A DNA stretch of 32,000 bases from an uncultured Solirubrobacterales bacterium (GTDB lineage Bacteria; Actinomycetota; Thermoleophilia; Solirubrobacterales; Solirubrobacteraceae): NCBI GenBank assembly GCA_963710725.1, contig CAVQBJ010000008.1:1-32000 (forward strand), in the 5' to 3' direction. The position numbers and the translations under genes are program-made. Shown piece by piece: positions 3,166 to 9,475 of this stretch. The notes beneath the pieces are model-generated. The model did no database searches. It saw only the letters and a list, made by a program, of their open reading frames with translations, and was not told where the DNA came from. Position 1 is the first letter of the stretch. Each line of letters opens with the position of its first letter.

Positions 3166-3318
3166 CCATGGGCCGGGCAGGACTCGAACCTGCGCGCGAC
3201 GGATTATGAGTTGCCCAAATGCAGGGCCTTTCGGCTCTACCAAGCCATCTTACACGCGCCCAACTGCGCTCAACTGACCTCAGAATTGCGGAGGTTGGGA
3301 CAAAGTCTGGGACAAAAC
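3166..3318 (-). repeat. tRNA-Met 3'-end copy B (att-like core 3169-3211) plus about 100-nt conserved arm
   Basis: 3169-3211 is identical to copy A and differs from the tRNA gene at one base. The arm 3212-3318 is similar to 1237-1340, with the exact 27-mer at 3280-3306. Confidence 0.85.
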
Positions 3319-3474
3319 TGATCTGAGACGGCTCGACGCCGGCGGGGTCCGCTCTTCGCACTCGCCACGTTCGCCGACCCACTCGCGCGCCCCACGCCGA
3401 GCTGGAGGATGCAAGGGATCGTTCCCTCCGGTCCGCGCGGCGGTCTACCGGATGCGCGCTACTGAGGGGCGATT

Positions 3475-3495
3475 GCGTAGTCGGCTACGCAGGAC
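3475..3495 (+). promoter_or_regulatory. candidate operator box 1: GCGTAG-TCGG-CTACGC followed by AGGAC
   Basis: Inverted repeat with 6-bp arms and a 4-nt spacer, 67 nt upstream of ATG 3563. 17 of 20 positions are identical to the box at 8015-8034. An extra CTACG half-site lies at 3518-3522. Confidence 0.4.
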
Positions 3496-3562
3496 GAGGA
3501 GGCGGCCGGGCGCGAGGCTACGGCGTGTCGATCAGACGCACGTCAACCGGAAGGAGACCCTC

Positions 3563-4171
3563 ATGTCATCTAACCAGAGTAAGAATGCCGAGTCGAGCAC
3601 GGGTGGTAAGGGCATCTTCATCGCGCTGATCCCGTGGATCGCCTTCACGGTGCTCGTTTCGCATTCGACGCTGAAGCTCGGTTCGCTGGCTGCGCTTGCA
3701 GTCGCGATCGTGATCGCGGTGCCGGGGATTCGCTCCGGGCGTCCGAAGCTGCTGGAGCTCGGTGCGGTCGTGACGTTCATCGGGTTCGTCGCAGTGGCGT
3801 TCCTCGCGGACGCTTCGACGGCCAGTTGGGTCGCTCGGTACGCGCGCGGGATCGCGGCGCTGATCCTGTCGGCGATCTCGTTCGCGTCGTTGCTCTTCAC
3901 GCCGTTTACCGAGCAGTACGCGCGCGAGCACGTCCCCGAGCGGTATTGGGGATCGCCGACCTTCAAGGCGGTCAACCGCAAGCTGACCACGATGTGGGCG
4001 TGCATTTTCGCCGCGATGGTGCCGTTCCACGTGATCGCGGGCACGCTCGACACCAGGCTCGGAAACCTGATCTTCAACTGGGCAATCCCGCTCGGGCTGG
4101 TGTTCTGGGGCATCAAGCGGTCCTCCGCCCCCAGCGAGAGCGACACGGCCACGGTCCAGCCGGTGGCGTAG
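3563..4171 (+). CDS. integral membrane protein (about 5-6 TM), unknown function
   Basis: ATG 3563 is preceded by the strong SD GGAAGGAG. The 202-aa product is hydrophobic (IFIALIPWIAFTVLVS, LAALAVAIVIAV, VVTFIGFVAVAFLA, IAALILSAISFASLLF, MWACIFAAMVPFHVIAG, FNWAIPLGLVFWGI). The upstream part of the track ORF (3452-3562) is Arg-rich leader, not coding. Confidence 0.75.
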   Translation: MSSNQSKNAESSTGGKGIFIALIPWIAFTVLVSHSTLKLGSLAALAVAIVIAVPGIRSGRPKLLELGAVVTFIGFVAVAFLADASTASWVARYARGIAALILSAISFASLLFTPFTEQYAREHVPERYWGSPTFKAVNRKLTTMWACIFAAMVPFHVIAGTLDTRLGNLIFNWAIPLGLVFWGIKRSSAPSESDTATVQPVA

Positions 4172-4197
4172 TGGACGACGTGGCTGTCCGATCGGTT

Positions 4198-5307
4198 ATG
4201 GATTCGGCGAGCGGCCGGTGCGAGCACGAGTTGCGAGCACTGGTCGCCGCCGCGCGTTGGGGGGCCGCTGACCCCGAAGTCATGAATACGATCGCCGCTC
4301 GCCTGGTGGGCGGCGATGGCGGCGCGTGGGTGCAGGAGTGGACGGCGGGAGGCGGCGCAGCCTGGTCGGCGGCCAACCGCGAGGGGAGCCCATGGCTCTA
4401 TCTGCATGCCGCCTCGTACTACGCGGCCGCGCTCGCTGTGATCGACCAGAGCGACGGACTGGTCCAGGAGGAACGGCTGTGGGGGCGACAGCGCGAGTGT
4501 TGGGACCGCGCCGTCGGACTGGTCGGCGGCGAGCCGCTCGTGATCCCGTACGGGCAGACGTCGCTGCCGGGGTATTTCTTCTCCGCGGGCTCGGGCGTGA
4601 GGCCGTTGGTGGTCATCGATCACGGGGGCCGCGCGGCCACGTCTTCGGCCTGGGCGGCCGGCGGCGCCGCGGCTCATGCGCGCGGCTATCACTGGATGAC
4701 GTTCGACGGGCCGGGCCGACAGGCAGCACTGCGCCGCCAGGGACTGGTCCTGCGACCCGATTGGGAAGCGGTGCTCGCTCCGGTCGTCGATGCGATGATC
4801 GCCCGGGCGGATGTCGACGCCTCGCGACTCGCGGTCATCGGGATCGACCATGCCGGATACGGCGTCGCGCGGGCGCTGACGTTCGAGCCGCGCTTCGCCG
4901 CGGCCGTGCTGGCGCCGGGAATCATCGATGCGTCCCGTCCGTGGCTGGCCGCGCTTCCAGCGCCGGCCCGTGCGGCACTGCTGGACGAGGACCGCGACCG
5001 GTTTGATCGCGAGGTCCATCTGGCGACGCTGTTCGCGCCGGAGATCCCTGACCGCCTGCGATTCCTGGGGCGCGGGTACGACTTGTCGGGGCTTCCGCTG
5101 TACGACCTCGCGCGGCGGATCGGCGAGTTCCGGCTCGGCGAGGAGCTCTGGCGGATCGCTGCGCCGGTGCTGGTGTGCTCGACGGCGGTCGAGCCGCTTT
5201 GGGCCGTCCAGGCCGCGGAGCTGTGCTCGCGACTGCCGGGCTCCGATCTGGCCTGCGCCGCGCCGGGCGAAGACGCCGTCTCGGACTGGCTCGACCGGCT
5301 GATCTAA
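4198..5307 (+). CDS. alpha/beta-hydrolase-fold paralog lacking the Ser-Asp-His triad (probable pseudoenzyme)
   Basis: Colinear with the 8125-9336 protein (shared blocks RGYHWMTFDGPG.QAAL, DWEAVL.PV.DA, RFAAAV, DRD.FDRE). The nucleophile elbow reads GIDHAG instead of GVSQAG, and the acid and His regions are not conserved. ATG 4198 aligns best with the paralog N-terminus. In-frame GTG 4171 would overlap the upstream stop (TAGTG). Confidence 0.75.
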   Translation: MDSASGRCEHELRALVAAARWGAADPEVMNTIAARLVGGDGGAWVQEWTAGGGAAWSAANREGSPWLYLHAASYYAAALAVIDQSDGLVQEERLWGRQRECWDRAVGLVGGEPLVIPYGQTSLPGYFFSAGSGVRPLVVIDHGGRAATSSAWAAGGAAAHARGYHWMTFDGPGRQAALRRQGLVLRPDWEAVLAPVVDAMIARADVDASRLAVIGIDHAGYGVARALTFEPRFAAAVLAPGIIDASRPWLAALPAPARAALLDEDRDRFDREVHLATLFAPEIPDRLRFLGRGYDLSGLPLYDLARRIGEFRLGEELWRIAAPVLVCSTAVEPLWAVQAAELCSRLPGSDLACAAPGEDAVSDWLDRLI

Positions 5308-5361
5308 TCCCGACTACCTCAGGTTCGTGAGAGCGCTCTTGTCGAGGGCGTAACCTTCGCG

Positions 5362-7974
5362 GTGGCCATGCCTGGGGAGCTGGGGCTCTCGTCCCCTTTA
5401 GAAGGCACGTGGCCCCTCGTGGGCCGCGATCGCGAACTCGAAGCGATCGCGTCGGCGCGCGCCAGCCCGGGGTGCAATGGGGTAGTCCTTGTTGCTGACG
5501 CCGGGGTCGGCAAGTCGCGTCTGGCCAGGGAGGCACAGGACGCGGCGCACCGCGACGGTGCGTTCGTCGATTGGGTGCACGCGACGCGCAGCGCCTCGGC
5601 CGTCCCGCTCGCGGCCGTAGCCGATCTGGTGCCCGAGGAGGTCCGCTCCGACGACATCGTCGCGCTGATGAGACGCTGCGGTGAGCAGCTGCTAGCCCGG
5701 GCCGGGAGCCGTCGGGTGGTCATCGGCGTCGACGATGCGCAGTTGCTTGACCCGGTCTCGGCCGCGCTGGTCCTGCATCTCGCGACCTCGGGAGCGGCGT
5801 TCGTGCTCGCGACCGTGCGCGCCGGGGAGCCGTGCCCCGACGCGATCGTGTCGTTGTGGAAGGAGGACACCGCGCGGCGAATGGAGCTCGCCTACCTCGG
5901 CGACGACGCGGTCCGGTCCCTGGTCGAGGCCGCGCTTGGTGACCCGGTGGAGGAGGCCGCCCTGGACTGGGTGGCCGAGGTCAGCCGGGGAAACGTGCTG
6001 TACGTGCGCGAGCTCGTCCGCGGCGCGGTCGAGGCGGAAGCGCTCGTCCGGTCAGGCGGGTTCTGGCGACTCGAGGGCCGCCCCACCGTCAGTCCATCGC
6101 TGGTCGATCTGGTCGGCCAGCGGATGGACGGTCTCACGGGCGATCAGCGACACGCGGTCGAGCTGCTCGCGCTCGGTGAGCCGCTCGCACTGCAGGAGAT
6201 CGCTGCGTTGACGTCCGAGGACACGCTGCTCGAGGCCGAGTCTCACGGGGTGATTGCCACAGACGGCCAGGAGGTCAGGCTGGCGCACCCGCTGTACGGC
6301 GAGGTGGTGCGCGCGCGGCTGGCGCCACTGCGGGCGCGCAGCCTGTGCATGCGGGTCGTAGAGGTCCTCGAGCGTCGGGATGCATTCGGCGCCGACGACG
6401 CCATGAGGGTGGCTCGGCTTCGTCTGGATGCCGGTGTGGCTCTGTCGGCGGACCTCGCGCTGCAAGGAGCACGAGCGGCAAACCGTGCCGGCGATCCCGA
6501 TCTCGGCGCGGAGCTCGCCACGCTCGCGGGCGCGGACACCGACCTGGTCGCCGCGATGCTCCTGGCCCAGTCGCACGCGATGCGCAGCCGTTACGAGGAG
6601 TCAGAGGCGGCGCTGGCCGCCGTTGAGGCGCTGGCCCCGGGAGATCCAAACGCCCGCGACTATGTCCGCCAGCGGCTGTCGCTGTACCACTGGGGGCTGC
6701 GGCGCGCGCGCGACACCGGCGCGCTGCTCGATCGCGCCGAGAGCTGGTCGCAGGACCGCGGTTGGCAGCGGTTCACCGGCCGGATCCGCGTCACCTACGA
6801 TGCGCTGAGCGACGGGTTCGAGTCACCGCTGGACCCCAGCGACAGCGTCGGCGACCCCGGCGTCACGGATGAAGCGCGCCGCGGGCTGGCGGCGATGCAG
6901 ACGGTGTCGTCGTTCCTGTCCGGGCAGGGCGACGCGGCAGCGGCGATGGCATTCGCGGCGCGGCCATCGGTGCCGCTGCGCGACTTCGCCGACGCCGGAG
7001 CGCTGGCCGCCCTGAGCCTGATCGCACTGGAGACGGGCCAGCGCTGGGATGAGGTCGAGCAGTACATGAGCGCCGTCGTGCACGACGCCGTGCGAGCCCA
7101 CGACCACGCCGCCGGCGGACTGGCGGCCTTTACGCTCGCGCGCCTGCACTTCCTCCGGGCGCGGTACCGCGACGCGTCCCGTTGGCTTGCCGAAGCCGAG
7201 ATCCACCTCCAGCAGCAGGATCCCTTCAACGTGATGCTGTCCGTCCGTGCGCTCCACGTGGGGATCGCGTGCTTCACCGGCGAGTTTGACGGCACGATGA
7301 CCGCGGTGGAGCGGCTGCGCGCGTTTTGCCAGAAGCACGAGCCGCTGCCCGTCCAACGCGCACCGCTGCGCCGGGCAGAAGGCTGGGCATCACGGGTACG
7401 CGACGCCGTCAGCGCGGGTGATCAACTGCTCGTCGACGCGGCGTCGATGGAGGATGACATGGTGGGTTTGGCGGCCCAGCTGGCGTACGACGCGCTGCGA
7501 GTCGGAGCGCCGGCGGCGCCGCAGCTTGAGCGGATGGCCGCCCGCTGCCGGTCCCGCCTCGTGACGGCGTATGCGCAGCACGGCACTGCGAAGGCAGCGC
7601 GTGACGGCGCTGCGCTGATGCAGGCCGCAGAGGAGATGGCGGCGATCGGCGCGCTCCGCTACGCCGTCGAGGCCGCGGGCGACGCCGCCGCGGCGTTGCT
7701 CTCGCAGGGACGCCAGGACTCGGCCCGCCGCGCCGCCGCTCGTGCCCGTCAGCTCCACGTTCCCGACCAGGGCGCGGAGCTGCCGCCGATCGACGGTCTC
7801 GACGCCGCCGCGGTCGACCTCACGCGGCGCGAGGCGCAGCTCGTTGACCTCGCGCGCGAGGGGTTGAGCAACGCCGAGATCGCGGACCGTCTCGTGCTCT
7901 CGGTGCGGACCGTCGAGACGCACCTGTACCGCGGCATGCAGAAGCTCGGCATCAACGATCGTCGGGACCTCTGA
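5362..7974 (+). CDS. LAL-type transcriptional regulator (N-terminal AAA+/STAND ATPase, helical repeat middle, C-terminal LuxR HTH)
   Basis: 870 aa. Walker A is VADAGVGKSRLA and Walker B is VVIGVDDAQLLD. The C-terminus LTRREAQLVDLAREGLSNAEIADRLVLSVRTVETHLYRGMQKLGI is a classic LuxR/GerE HTH. The start is GTG 5362 or ATG 5368. Confidence 0.9.
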   Translation: MAMPGELGLSSPLEGTWPLVGRDRELEAIASARASPGCNGVVLVADAGVGKSRLAREAQDAAHRDGAFVDWVHATRSASAVPLAAVADLVPEEVRSDDIVALMRRCGEQLLARAGSRRVVIGVDDAQLLDPVSAALVLHLATSGAAFVLATVRAGEPCPDAIVSLWKEDTARRMELAYLGDDAVRSLVEAALGDPVEEAALDWVAEVSRGNVLYVRELVRGAVEAEALVRSGGFWRLEGRPTVSPSLVDLVGQRMDGLTGDQRHAVELLALGEPLALQEIAALTSEDTLLEAESHGVIATDGQEVRLAHPLYGEVVRARLAPLRARSLCMRVVEVLERRDAFGADDAMRVARLRLDAGVALSADLALQGARAANRAGDPDLGAELATLAGADTDLVAAMLLAQSHAMRSRYEESEAALAAVEALAPGDPNARDYVRQRLSLYHWGLRRARDTGALLDRAESWSQDRGWQRFTGRIRVTYDALSDGFESPLDPSDSVGDPGVTDEARRGLAAMQTVSSFLSGQGDAAAAMAFAARPSVPLRDFADAGALAALSLIALETGQRWDEVEQYMSAVVHDAVRAHDHAAGGLAAFTLARLHFLRARYRDASRWLAEAEIHLQQQDPFNVMLSVRALHVGIACFTGEFDGTMTAVERLRAFCQKHEPLPVQRAPLRRAEGWASRVRDAVSAGDQLLVDAASMEDDMVGLAAQLAYDALRVGAPAAPQLERMAARCRSRLVTAYAQHGTAKAARDGAALMQAAEEMAAIGALRYAVEAAGDAAAALLSQGRQDSARRAAARARQLHVPDQGAELPPIDGLDAAAVDLTRREAQLVDLAREGLSNAEIADRLVLSVRTVETHLYRGMQKLGINDRRDL

Positions 7975-8013
7975 GCCGGAGCTCGTCTCACGGCGCGAAA
8001 ACCACCCTCGAAT

Positions 8014-8034
8014 ACGTAGCGCGCTACGCAGGAC
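8014..8034 (+). promoter_or_regulatory. candidate operator box 2: CGTAGCG/CGCTACG palindrome followed by CAGGAC
   Basis: Perfect 14-bp palindrome at 8015-8028, then CAGGAC, ending 90 nt upstream of ATG 8125. It matches box 1 at 17 of 20 positions. A further GTAGCG half-site lies at 8077-8082. Confidence 0.4.
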
Positions 8035-8124
8035 AGGCGATCTCTGCGCCGACACGCTTTCGTCAGACAGCGAGTTGTAGCGCCGCCGCAAAGAGTGAGC
8101 GCGACCTGAGACGAAGGGGACAAC

Positions 8125-9336
8125 ATGAACGAGCAGTTTGCGGACGCCGAATTTCAATTCGGCCTCGAGATCACATTGGGCGCCGCCTACCGTCAGGCGT
8201 CCGACGTAGGCGAGGCGCTCGCCACCGCCAGCCGGATCACCGACGGCGACGCCGATTCGTGGCTCAACGAGTGGACCGCCACGGCCGAGCTGTGCCAGGC
8301 CGCCGGCGCCGAAGCGCAGTCAGCTGATCGGCGCGTCAGCGCCCTGTCCTACTATCGACGCGCCGCAACCTACTACGCGACCGCGCTCTACCGCTTCTCC
8401 GGCGCCACCGACCACTCGCCCGAGCGCGAGCACGAGCTGTGGCGCCGCCAGCGGGCCTGCTGGGAGCGAGTCGTCGACTTGCAGGCGGTGCCCGGCCAGC
8501 GCATCTCGATCCCCTACGAGGACACGACTCTGGCGGGTTTCTTCTTCCGCGCCCCGGACGCCACGCCGGGCGAGCGCCGCCCGCTCGTCGTCATGAACAA
8601 CGGCAGCGACGGCGCCACCTCGGCGATGTGGTTGGAGGGCGGTGCGGCCGCGGCCGAACGCGGCTATCACTGGATGACGTTCGACGGTCCCGGGCAGCAG
8701 GCGGCGCTCTATGAGCAGAATATCCCCTTCCGCCACGACTGGGAAGCCGTCCTCACTCCCGTCCTCGATGCGATCCTCCCGCGCCCCGACGTCGACGAGC
8801 ACCACGTCGCGCTGATCGGCGTCAGCCAAGCCGGCTACTGGGTGCCACGGGCGATCGCGTTCGAGCATCGCTTCGCCGCCGCCGTGGCCGACGGGGGCGT
8901 CGTCGACGTCTCGGCCGGATGGCTGAACCATCTGCCGGACACCATGCGCAAGCAGCTCGGCGACGGCGATCGCGACGCGTTCGATCGCGAGATGCAAGTC
9001 GCGGAAAGCAGATCGCCGGCGGCCAAGGCGACGCTCGACTTCCGTGGCAAGCCCTATGGGTTCAACGGTGGCTCCCGCTTCGATCTCTACCAGGAGATCT
9101 CGTCCTATCGACTCGGCGACGAGGTGAGCGACATCACCACCCCGCTGCTCATCACAGACCCCGACGACGAGCAGTTCTTCCCCGGACAGCCCCAACAGCT
9201 CTACGACCTCCTGTCCGGCACCAAGAAGCTCATCCGGTTCACCGCGCACGAAGGGGCCAACGGCCACTGCGAACCGATGGCCCGGTCACTGCGAGACACC
9301 CGCATCTTCGACTGGCTCGAGGGCTACCTACAGTGA
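8125..9336 (+). CDS. alpha/beta hydrolase family protein (serine hydrolase with N-terminal helical domain)
   Basis: 403 aa with the SD GAAGGGGA before ATG 8125. It has the nucleophile elbow GVSQAG, an acid region LLITDPDDEQF and a C-terminal His region HEGANGHCE. It is a paralog of 4198-5307. Confidence 0.85.
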   Translation: MNEQFADAEFQFGLEITLGAAYRQASDVGEALATASRITDGDADSWLNEWTATAELCQAAGAEAQSADRRVSALSYYRRAATYYATALYRFSGATDHSPEREHELWRRQRACWERVVDLQAVPGQRISIPYEDTTLAGFFFRAPDATPGERRPLVVMNNGSDGATSAMWLEGGAAAAERGYHWMTFDGPGQQAALYEQNIPFRHDWEAVLTPVLDAILPRPDVDEHHVALIGVSQAGYWVPRAIAFEHRFAAAVADGGVVDVSAGWLNHLPDTMRKQLGDGDRDAFDREMQVAESRSPAAKATLDFRGKPYGFNGGSRFDLYQEISSYRLGDEVSDITTPLLITDPDDEQFFPGQPQQLYDLLSGTKKLIRFTAHEGANGHCEPMARSLRDTRIFDWLEGYLQ

Positions 9337-9402: not shown

Positions 9403-9475
9403 TGGGCCGGGCAGGACTCGAACCTGCGCACGACGGATTATGAGTCCGCTGCTCTAACCACTGAGCTACCGGCCC
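9403..9475 (-). tRNA. tRNA-Met (anticodon CAT); elongator-type, tRNA-Ile2 (lysidine) not excluded
   Basis: The reverse complement folds as a 73-nt cloverleaf: GGGCCGG TA GCTC AGTGGTTA GAGC A GCGGA CTCATAA TCCGT CGTGC GCAGG TTCGAGT CCTGC CCGGCCC A. G1-C72 is paired, so it is not an initiator. No CCA is encoded. Confidence 0.9.

Follow-up and report, generated by a model that had tools for sequence, protein, structure and literature searches.

A 32,000-nucleotide stretch of DNA from an uncultured Solirubrobacterales bacterium (positions 1 to 32,000 of contig CAVQBJ010000008.1, assembly GCA_963710725.1; hereafter the window) carries two closely similar inverted-repeat boxes, one on either side of a gene for a STAND/LAL regulator. 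Comparative analysis of the sequences identifies as the best explanation that each box forms the upstream operator half of an activator-dependent promoter of the housekeeping-sigma type. The boxes are, by our prediction, almost certainly binding sites for the adjacent LAL, and the LAL probably activates both of the promoters to which they belong. Conservation of the boxes, their uniqueness in the genome, their fixed register with promoter elements, and their linkage to this LAL subfamily are directly supported by the data presented here. The regulator gene is part of a four-gene cassette in which a small membrane protein gene (memb) and a hydrolase paralog (hyd1) follow box 1, and a second hydrolase gene (hyd2) follows the LAL gene and box 2; the predicted regulon in the source genome consists of these two promoters.

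Sequence and genomic rarity of the boxes

Box 1 reads GCGTAGTCGGCTACGCAGGAC at window positions 3475–3495 and box 2 reads ACGTAGCGCGCTACGCAGGAC at 8014–8034; the pattern common to both, CGTAG-N4-CTACGCAGGAC, spans 3476–3495 and 8015–8034, respectively. The original prediction, which first drew attention to the boxes from the letters of the window, had counted 17 identities over these 20 aligned positions and had placed the box ends 67 and 90 nt upstream of ATG 3563 and ATG 8125. Both statements are correct, and all 16 specified bases are the same in the two copies. The two boxes are also, as had been noted, the sole matches in the window, here at up to three mismatches (shuffled sequences average 0.33 matches).

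The motif might have been frequent throughout the genome irrespective of context, a possibility raised along with the original prediction; this is not what is observed. The source assembly (4.52 Mb in 8 contigs, 71.5% GC) contains two copies at zero or one mismatch, both flanking the LAL gene, and even the bare GTAG-N4-CTAC is confined to the same two sites in the whole genome. A third genomic match, with two mismatches and located on contig C1, is taken as chance. The chance expectation for the 16 specified bases, estimated from base composition, is ~3e-10 per position, or ~0.003 copies per genome.

Predicted promoter architecture

A scan for consensus promoters and terminators found nothing; the promoters emerged through comparative alignment, which revealed a constant order of elements. 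The upstream part is an 18-bp palindrome, T(A/G)CGTAG-N4-CTACGCA; directly adjoining it is a weak -35 element, AGGACR, and this is followed by a 17-bp spacer and a suboptimal -10 element, (G/C)AnnnT. The full conserved block of box 1, cRRWTR-CGTAG-N4-CTACGCAGGAC-R, occupies 3470–3496 on the plus strand; no conserved element of the cassette lies farther 5′. Within this block, the palindrome TGCGTAG-TCGG-CTACGCA (3474–3491), delimited from the sequence and a logo of related sites, is the predicted site for a dimer of the LAL helix-turn-helix (HTH) domain. The -35-like hexamer AGGACG at the tail of the box (3491–3496, plus strand) lies 17 bp before a predicted -10 hexamer, GAGGCT (3514–3519, plus strand; GAGAGT in orthologs), and the predicted transcription start falls at ~3525–3527.

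The corresponding elements of box 2 are the full block (8009–8035, plus strand), which starts 35 nt past the LAL stop codon; the 18-bp palindrome TACGTAG-CGCG-CTACGCA (8013–8030) and the -35-like hexamer AGGACA (8030–8035, plus strand), both delimited from the sequence and the logo; and a predicted -10 hexamer, CACGCT (8053–8058, plus strand), that is kept in orthologs. The predicted start is at ~A8065, leaving a 5′ untranslated region (UTR) of ~60 nt. Two extra half-sites that had been noted near the boxes, CTACG at 3518–3522 and GTAGCG at 8077–8082, are present in the letters but are not conserved, as orthologs read GAGAGTTCC and GTCGCG at these places; the first of them overlaps the predicted -10 hexamer of box 1.

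A metagenome scan with the exact 16-base pattern provided 80 contigs with an exact box for analysis. An nAnnnT hexamer lies 17 bp past AGGACN in all 23 of the contigs carrying memb, hyd, or LAL homologs, as compared with just six of the 57 contigs without such homologs, one of which (L054) clearly represents an orthologous context; most of these 57 look like low-GC chance matches. The hexamer stands exactly 17 bp past the AGGAC(A/G) tail in every independent context. Its observed sequences are GAGGCT or GAGAGT for box 1, CACGCT for box 2, CAGGAT, GAAGCT, and GAGACT in three other genera, and TAGCTT for a third box found in one orthologous locus (L026).

The logo, built from 65 non-redundant sites, gives the conserved block as cRRWTR-CGTAG-YNNG-CTACGCAGGAC-R; its GTA-N6-TAC core is invariant, and both arms of the dyad are equally conserved. 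In 62 of the 65 sites, the -10 opens with G or C in place of T; a preference for A is seen 7 nt past the -10, and the -35 of the box promoters agrees with TTGACA at three of six positions. Variant boxes read CGTAG-N4-(C/G)TAC-TGA-N-GAC, which reduces the invariant parts to CGTA, TAC, one A, and GAC; the GAC of the AGGAC tail is invariant in all box variants. The presence of both tail variants, GCAGGAC and TGACGAC, on a single contig (L117) suggests that the difference between them is not a specificity determinant.

Among 28 independent promoter groups, defined as at most 60% identical downstream, 12 have an ATG or GTG located 6–8 nt past the -10 that opens an open reading frame (ORF) of at least 100 aa. 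This spacing points to leaderless mRNA, a configuration common in Actinomycetota, and so would fix the transcription start. With the leaderless start as reference, the predicted promoter has its -10 at −12 to −7, AGGACR at −35 to −30, and the palindrome at −52 to −35, centered at ~−43.5. An operator dyad of ~18–20 bp is therefore found in the predicted promoter with its center within the range of ~−41.5 to −43.5 and abutting the -35, as is characteristic of class II activation.

The start region of memb (window 3520–3565) varies between the window and its relatives. In most orthologs, the memb ORF is longer by 13 codons at its 5′ end (M-x-I-S-x-H-V-N-R-K-E...) and starts at an ATG 6–7 nt past the -10, which would make the memb mRNA leaderless. 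The window equivalent of this early ATG is GTG 3525, placed out of frame with ATG 3563 by a 1-nt gap relative to the orthologs, and the closest relative (L073) keeps the early start in frame; the gap near 3525 represents a genuine indel or else a fault of the assembly. The internal memb ATG, with its Shine-Dalgarno sequence GGAAGGAG, is kept everywhere. In the predicted hyd2 5′ UTR (window 8077–8106), a conserved GC-rich hairpin stands directly before the Shine-Dalgarno sequence (GTCGCGCCGC...GCGGACGCGAC in orthologs); RNAalifold found no compensatory changes for this hairpin, and the window copy is mismatched (GTAGCG).

Conservation in orthologous loci

Querying with the LAL protein returned 11 loci (L026–L036) from metagenome-assembled genomes of Solirubrobacterales/Solirubrobacteraceae, with LALs that are 69–84% identical. 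Conservation upstream of orthologous genes, on which the original prediction had been staked, is observed for both boxes. Box 1 is exact in all 10 loci with the memb-hyd1-LAL arrangement, ~90 nt before the annotated memb ATG, and box 2 is kept in all eight loci with hyd2 (exact in six, one mismatch in two). Box 2 is also present in L029, with a different gene behind it; L032 has box 1 and neither box 2 nor hyd2, and L028 contains the LAL alone and no box. The exact box is additionally kept in remoter orthologs on soil-metagenome contigs, where LALs are 48–66% identical, and ~23 metagenome contigs combine the box with homologs of genes of this island.

Conservation begins 6 nt before CGTAG and runs in patches up to the start codon; nothing in the DNA upstream of box 1 is alignable among the orthologous loci. 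A tRNA-Met gene lies downstream of hyd2 in the window (9403–9475, minus strand), and no tRNA gene was found within 10 kb in any of 10 orthologous loci, which implies that the cassette resides in different genomic contexts and brings its boxes along. The four-gene unit appears, from these comparisons, to move or insert as a block with an operator at its 5′ edge.

Box 1 is predicted to drive memb-hyd1 in all lineages. Box 2, in L029 (8851), L054, L055, L066, and L106, instead of hyd2 precedes a gene for a DUF3533/ABC2_membrane_3 (ABC-2-type) membrane protein of ~470 aa. Judging from these arrangements, different output genes can occupy the cassette in different lineages, and the box and its -10 stay put. 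In L026, a third box precedes a gene whose product is a secreted, PKD-domain protein of 1089 aa. In the same locus, a perfect 26-nt palindrome, GTCCTGCGTGGCTTGCCACGCAGGAC, occurs at L026:6596–6621, 13 nt past the stop codon of this box-controlled gene, and has ACGCAGGAC on both strands; it may be coincidental, or it may function as a hairpin resembling a terminator or as an operator of full symmetry.

Association of the box with LAL genes across genomes

The sample for this comparison comprised 300 genomes of the same family and the source genome (301 searched), of which 20 hold a LAL homolog at a cutoff of E ≤ 1e-120. A relaxed pattern, CGTA-N6-TAC-NNA-NGAC-N19-A-NNN-T, was run on 17 other LAL-positive and 17 LAL-negative genomes. 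It returned 22 matches in 10 of the 17 LAL-positive genomes, 15 of them within 3 kb of a LAL gene, and no matches in the 17 genomes without a LAL homolog; the reversed-pattern control likewise gave none. These counts are descriptive rather than a formal test, as relatives are not independent; they bear out the expectation that the box travels with the LAL subfamily (10/17 LAL-positive as compared with 0/17 LAL-negative genomes), with most matches beside LAL genes. One-mismatch matches in the family scan were mostly at the level of the reversed-pattern control and were rejected as chance, so that intact palindromes alone were taken further.

Individual genomes illustrate several arrangements. 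The match in G121 lies 34 nt past a LAL stop codon, the same arrangement as box 2, and those in G072, G075, G140, and G177 are divergent, 71–103 nt upstream of LAL starts. All three matches in the 7.1-Mb genome of G017 fall in a 30-kb stretch with the three LAL genes of that genome and a hyd homolog. Neither box nor LAL was found in the same-genus genomes G018, G065, and G102, which had been expected to contain orthologous loci and so gave no information. G308 (L170) has a box 62 nt upstream of a LAL that is 34% identical, in divergent orientation. Box-like promoters with an unchanged register are found in other Actinomycetota families, and two of them drive homologous membrane proteins of 169–178 aa (RRYLPxEIAG...) from leaderless ATGs. 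The predicted operator code may reach beyond Solirubrobacterales.

Regulatory interpretation and alternatives

The LAL gene (5362–7974, plus strand) encodes the sole DNA-binding protein in the cassette. The protein is 868–870 aa in length and has an N-terminal P-loop NTPase module (Pfam AAA_16, E = 4e-11, and AAA_22; residues 18–143), in which the translation shows the Walker A motif GVGKS and the stretch VVIGVDD with the Walker B motif VIGVDD, and a C-terminal GerE/LuxR-type HTH (Pfam GerE, E = 1.4e-12; residues 820–870); the long, putatively helical middle part has no Pfam match. A promoter of its own (5328–5356, plus strand), consisting of TGAGAG, a 17-bp spacer, and TAACCT (-10 at 5351–5356), sits in the 55 nt that separate hyd1 from the LAL gene, and its -10 is the canonical TAnnnT in all ten loci aligned. 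The transcription start predicted for it falls at ~5363. This -10 ends 5 nt before GTG 5362 and 11 nt before ATG 5368 (12 nt in two orthologs checked). The LAL start is probably the conserved ATG 5368 rather than GTG 5362, and the distance of 11–12 nt implies that the leader is very short or absent. With such a promoter, the LAL can, in prediction, be made constitutively.

Under the favored explanation, the LAL would be produced from this canonical promoter, and a ligand would switch on its ATPase/sensor part. The switched-on LAL would bind the palindrome as a dimer through its C-terminal LuxR-type HTH and would recruit RNA polymerase as class II activators do; the output of box 1 would be memb-hyd1, with probable read-through into the LAL gene, and that of box 2 would be hyd2. 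Because no terminator-like site was found between 3200 and 8300, read-through from box 1 would add positive feedback. The T-less -10 of the box promoters, as compared with the canonical -10 of the LAL promoter, supports activator dependence. The initial proposal that one LAL controls two hydrolase loci holds in respect of the uniqueness of the boxes, their conservation, and their LAL linkage, but it needs amendment in other respects: unit 1 consists of memb and a hydrolase that lacks the catalytic triad, the second target is interchangeable, and the LAL has its own promoter.

Several points weigh against this explanation. Physical binding, the transcription starts, activation over repression, and the ligand are all inferred, and a palindrome that overlaps the -35 would suit a repressor equally. 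The one-sided conservation of GCAGGAC is stricter than is usual for a -35 element alone and is not fully explained. Seven of the 17 LAL-positive genomes have no relaxed-pattern match, most of them with LALs just 38–49% identical. G001, which is 97% complete, contains an exact box with the correct -10 (CAGGAT) and no LAL homolog at E ≤ 1e-30, and two genomes of another Actinomycetota family, G436 (L173) and G448 (L168), have box-like promoters that do not adjoin LAL genes. As a separate observation, the ORF downstream of the orphan box in G001 (L012/L024; G001:C7:1024–1067, minus strand) is LtrA-like and stops after 65 aa; this locus may be a decaying relic.

The LAL could alternatively bind the box as a repressor, blocking the -35 region until a ligand releases it, though we consider this unlikely. 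The palindrome does touch the -35-like hexamer, and SCO6993, a LAL-type regulator, has been reported to repress by binding promoter palindromes (PMC9628970). However, both box promoters look intrinsically weak, with three of six -35 positions matched and no first T of the -10 in 62 of 65 sites, while the LAL promoter is canonical. A fixed center at ~−43.5 and strict 17-bp phasing are typical of class II activation, and a repressor would not require that 28 independent promoter groups keep a single rigid register.

It is quite improbable that another trans-acting factor encoded elsewhere, either a regulator or an alternative sigma factor, reads the box and that the proximity of the LAL is incidental. 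Such a factor would accommodate the exact box of G001 and the box-like promoters of G436 and G448 away from LAL genes, and conservation extends over all 27 bp of the block, -35 region included, as it does in a sigma-type promoter element. The distribution of the box family among genomes with and without a LAL (10/17 versus 0/17) and its clustering within 3 kb of LAL genes argue otherwise, as does the four-gene cassette, which always carries the LAL together with both boxes in varied genomic contexts. Furthermore, a -10 with A at its second and T at its sixth position, combined with a 17-bp spacer, is of the housekeeping type and not of the extracytoplasmic function (ECF) type.

A role for the inverted repeat as a nucleic acid hairpin, whether as leader RNA structure, attenuator or terminator, or recombination site, is very improbable. 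The repeat would give a stem of 5–7 bp with a 4-nt loop, and in L026 a perfect 26-nt palindrome containing the right arm lies behind a gene end; but the predicted start, placed by leaderless start codons, lies downstream of the box, and all eight sites with variation at the inner pair break that pair (G/G in four, A/C in three, A/G in one) with no compensatory change. The box has no Rfam match and no T-tract or terminator, and genes of the same orientation lie behind both copies. A scan of 3300–8300 against Rfam at E ≤ 10 gave just a chance ALIL match inside hyd1. A cis-regulatory RNA (riboswitch or leader) was considered specifically and rejected, given the position of the box upstream of the predicted start and the inner pair broken in all eight variants.

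Finally, the probability that the similarity of the boxes is due to chance or is a neutral remnant of hydrolase duplication is negligible, this reading being already refuted by genome uniqueness and by conservation in orthologs and metagenomes: the downstream units do contain paralogs, but Hyd1 and Hyd2 are just 43% identical in protein, so that the shared 20-mer is not a neutral relic of their duplication, ~0.003 copies per genome would be expected by the estimate above, and the box is exact across loci with LALs 48–84% identical, where the adjoining DNA is not conserved.

Genes of the cassette

Positions 3563–5307, listed undivided in the original prediction, are not one gene: they contain two genes in different frames, for a membrane protein and a hydrolase paralog. 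The first gene of unit 1, memb (3563–4171, plus strand), encodes a 202-aa multi-pass membrane protein with 68–87% identity in orthologous loci and no family match in Pfam or NCBIfam. It is followed by hyd1 (4171–5307, plus strand), an alpha/beta-hydrolase paralog without a catalytic triad, which overlaps the memb stop codon and whose start is uncertain (GTG 4171, GTG 4180, or ATG 4198). The hydrolase gene of the second unit, hyd2 (8125–9336, plus strand), encodes an alpha/beta hydrolase of 403 aa in which both Ser (GVSQAG) and His (GHCEP) are intact and which belongs to a group including FrsA, DHPON hydrolase (2jbw), Ayg1/Yg1, and SMU_737 (3fnb).

The nucleophile motif of hyd1 is G-I/V-D/E-H-A-G (GIDHAG in the window) in place of G-V-S-Q-A/G-G (GVSQAG in hyd2), which replaces Ser with Asp or Glu; in addition, the acidic DPDDE stretch is altered, and a deletion has removed the loop that bears the catalytic His (GANGHCEP). 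These losses are common to all orthologs and to the G017 homolog; the protein is nonetheless 66–83% conserved. The hyd1 product is, by these sequence features, a putative maintained pseudo-enzyme co-transcribed with a small membrane protein. Since the triad is lost in every ortholog and the protein is yet well conserved, it may be a binding protein rather than an enzyme.

Activation of both box promoters by the LAL is the reading that we prefer. A more speculative extension, which is unlikely as a whole, would make the cassette a portable, self-contained switch, in which hyd1 and memb act as ligand receptor or co-sensor gating the LAL, hyd2 or, in other lineages, the DUF3533 transporter is a swappable output, and the 27-bp operator-promoter code is common to the whole LAL subfamily in Solirubrobacterales and recurs sporadically elsewhere in Actinomycetota. 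The receptor role proposed for hyd1 would resemble that of some alpha/beta-hydrolase-fold receptors. If true, this extension would provide a predictable promoter grammar for STAND regulators.

Significance and comparison with known systems

Outside MalT, few of the DNA sites bound by LAL/STAND regulators have been well defined (PMC9628970), and the module described here supplies a consensus site. Within the uncultured soil lineage Solirubrobacterales, the predicted operator of one LAL subfamily is precise: an 18-bp dyad with fixed -35, spacer, and -10, recurring in ~28 independent promoter groups. This definition permits regulon prediction from sequence alone as well as the direct design of electrophoretic mobility shift assays (EMSA) and reporter constructs, and it raises the question of what role a conserved, triad-less hydrolase plays when co-expressed with the regulator. 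The regulatory logic, in which a LuxR-type dyad operator occupies a class II position, is known; the cassette changes no concept and is an unusually well-defined example.

The arrangement resembles LuxR/TraR class II promoters and their lux box in having a dyad of ~18–20 bp for a GerE/LuxR-type HTH dimer, with its center at or over the -35 (here predicted at −43.5). The lux box shares the GTA-N6-TAC core spacing found here. Both systems are local regulons beside the regulator gene, with possible positive feedback. In V. fischeri, the lux box is a 20-bp dyad centered at −42.5 (PMC7585371). LuxR is an acyl-homoserine-lactone receptor of 250 aa, whereas the regulator in the window is a STAND/AAA+ LAL of 870 aa; the setting also differs from that of the lux box in its high-GC Thermoleophilia host, its transcripts, which are predicted to be partly leaderless, and the strictly conserved one-sided GCAGGAC fused to the dyad.

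MalT, the prototype LAL/STAND activator, governs the E. coli maltose regulon as an activator of catabolic genes and is switched by a small-molecule inducer. The LAL resembles it in size (~870–900 aa), in the ATP-binding STAND module at its N terminus, and in its C-terminal LuxR-type HTH, and the part in between is a putative counterpart of the helical sensor region; the sequence match to MalT is limited to the HTH (NF003420, E = 6e-7, far below cutoff). MalT boxes are short and asymmetric, with the sequence GGA[TG]GA (quoted in PMC9628970). Several such boxes occur in direct or inverted arrays, often with CRP, whereas each promoter here has one 18-bp palindrome in a fixed register.

Streptomyces LALs such as PikD, RapH, AbsR2, and SCO6993 have the same domain architecture and are likewise encoded beside the genes they control; the best NCBIfam match of the LAL is in fact AbsR2, below cutoff and over the N-terminal 320 aa only. 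SCO6993 binds short promoter palindromes, including one in its own promoter, and the footprinting study reporting this could predict no consensus (PMC9628970). The Streptomyces regulators control antibiotic gene clusters through poorly defined operators; in the cassette described here, by contrast, comparative genomics yields a sharply defined operator, and the predicted targets are hydrolase and membrane-protein genes.

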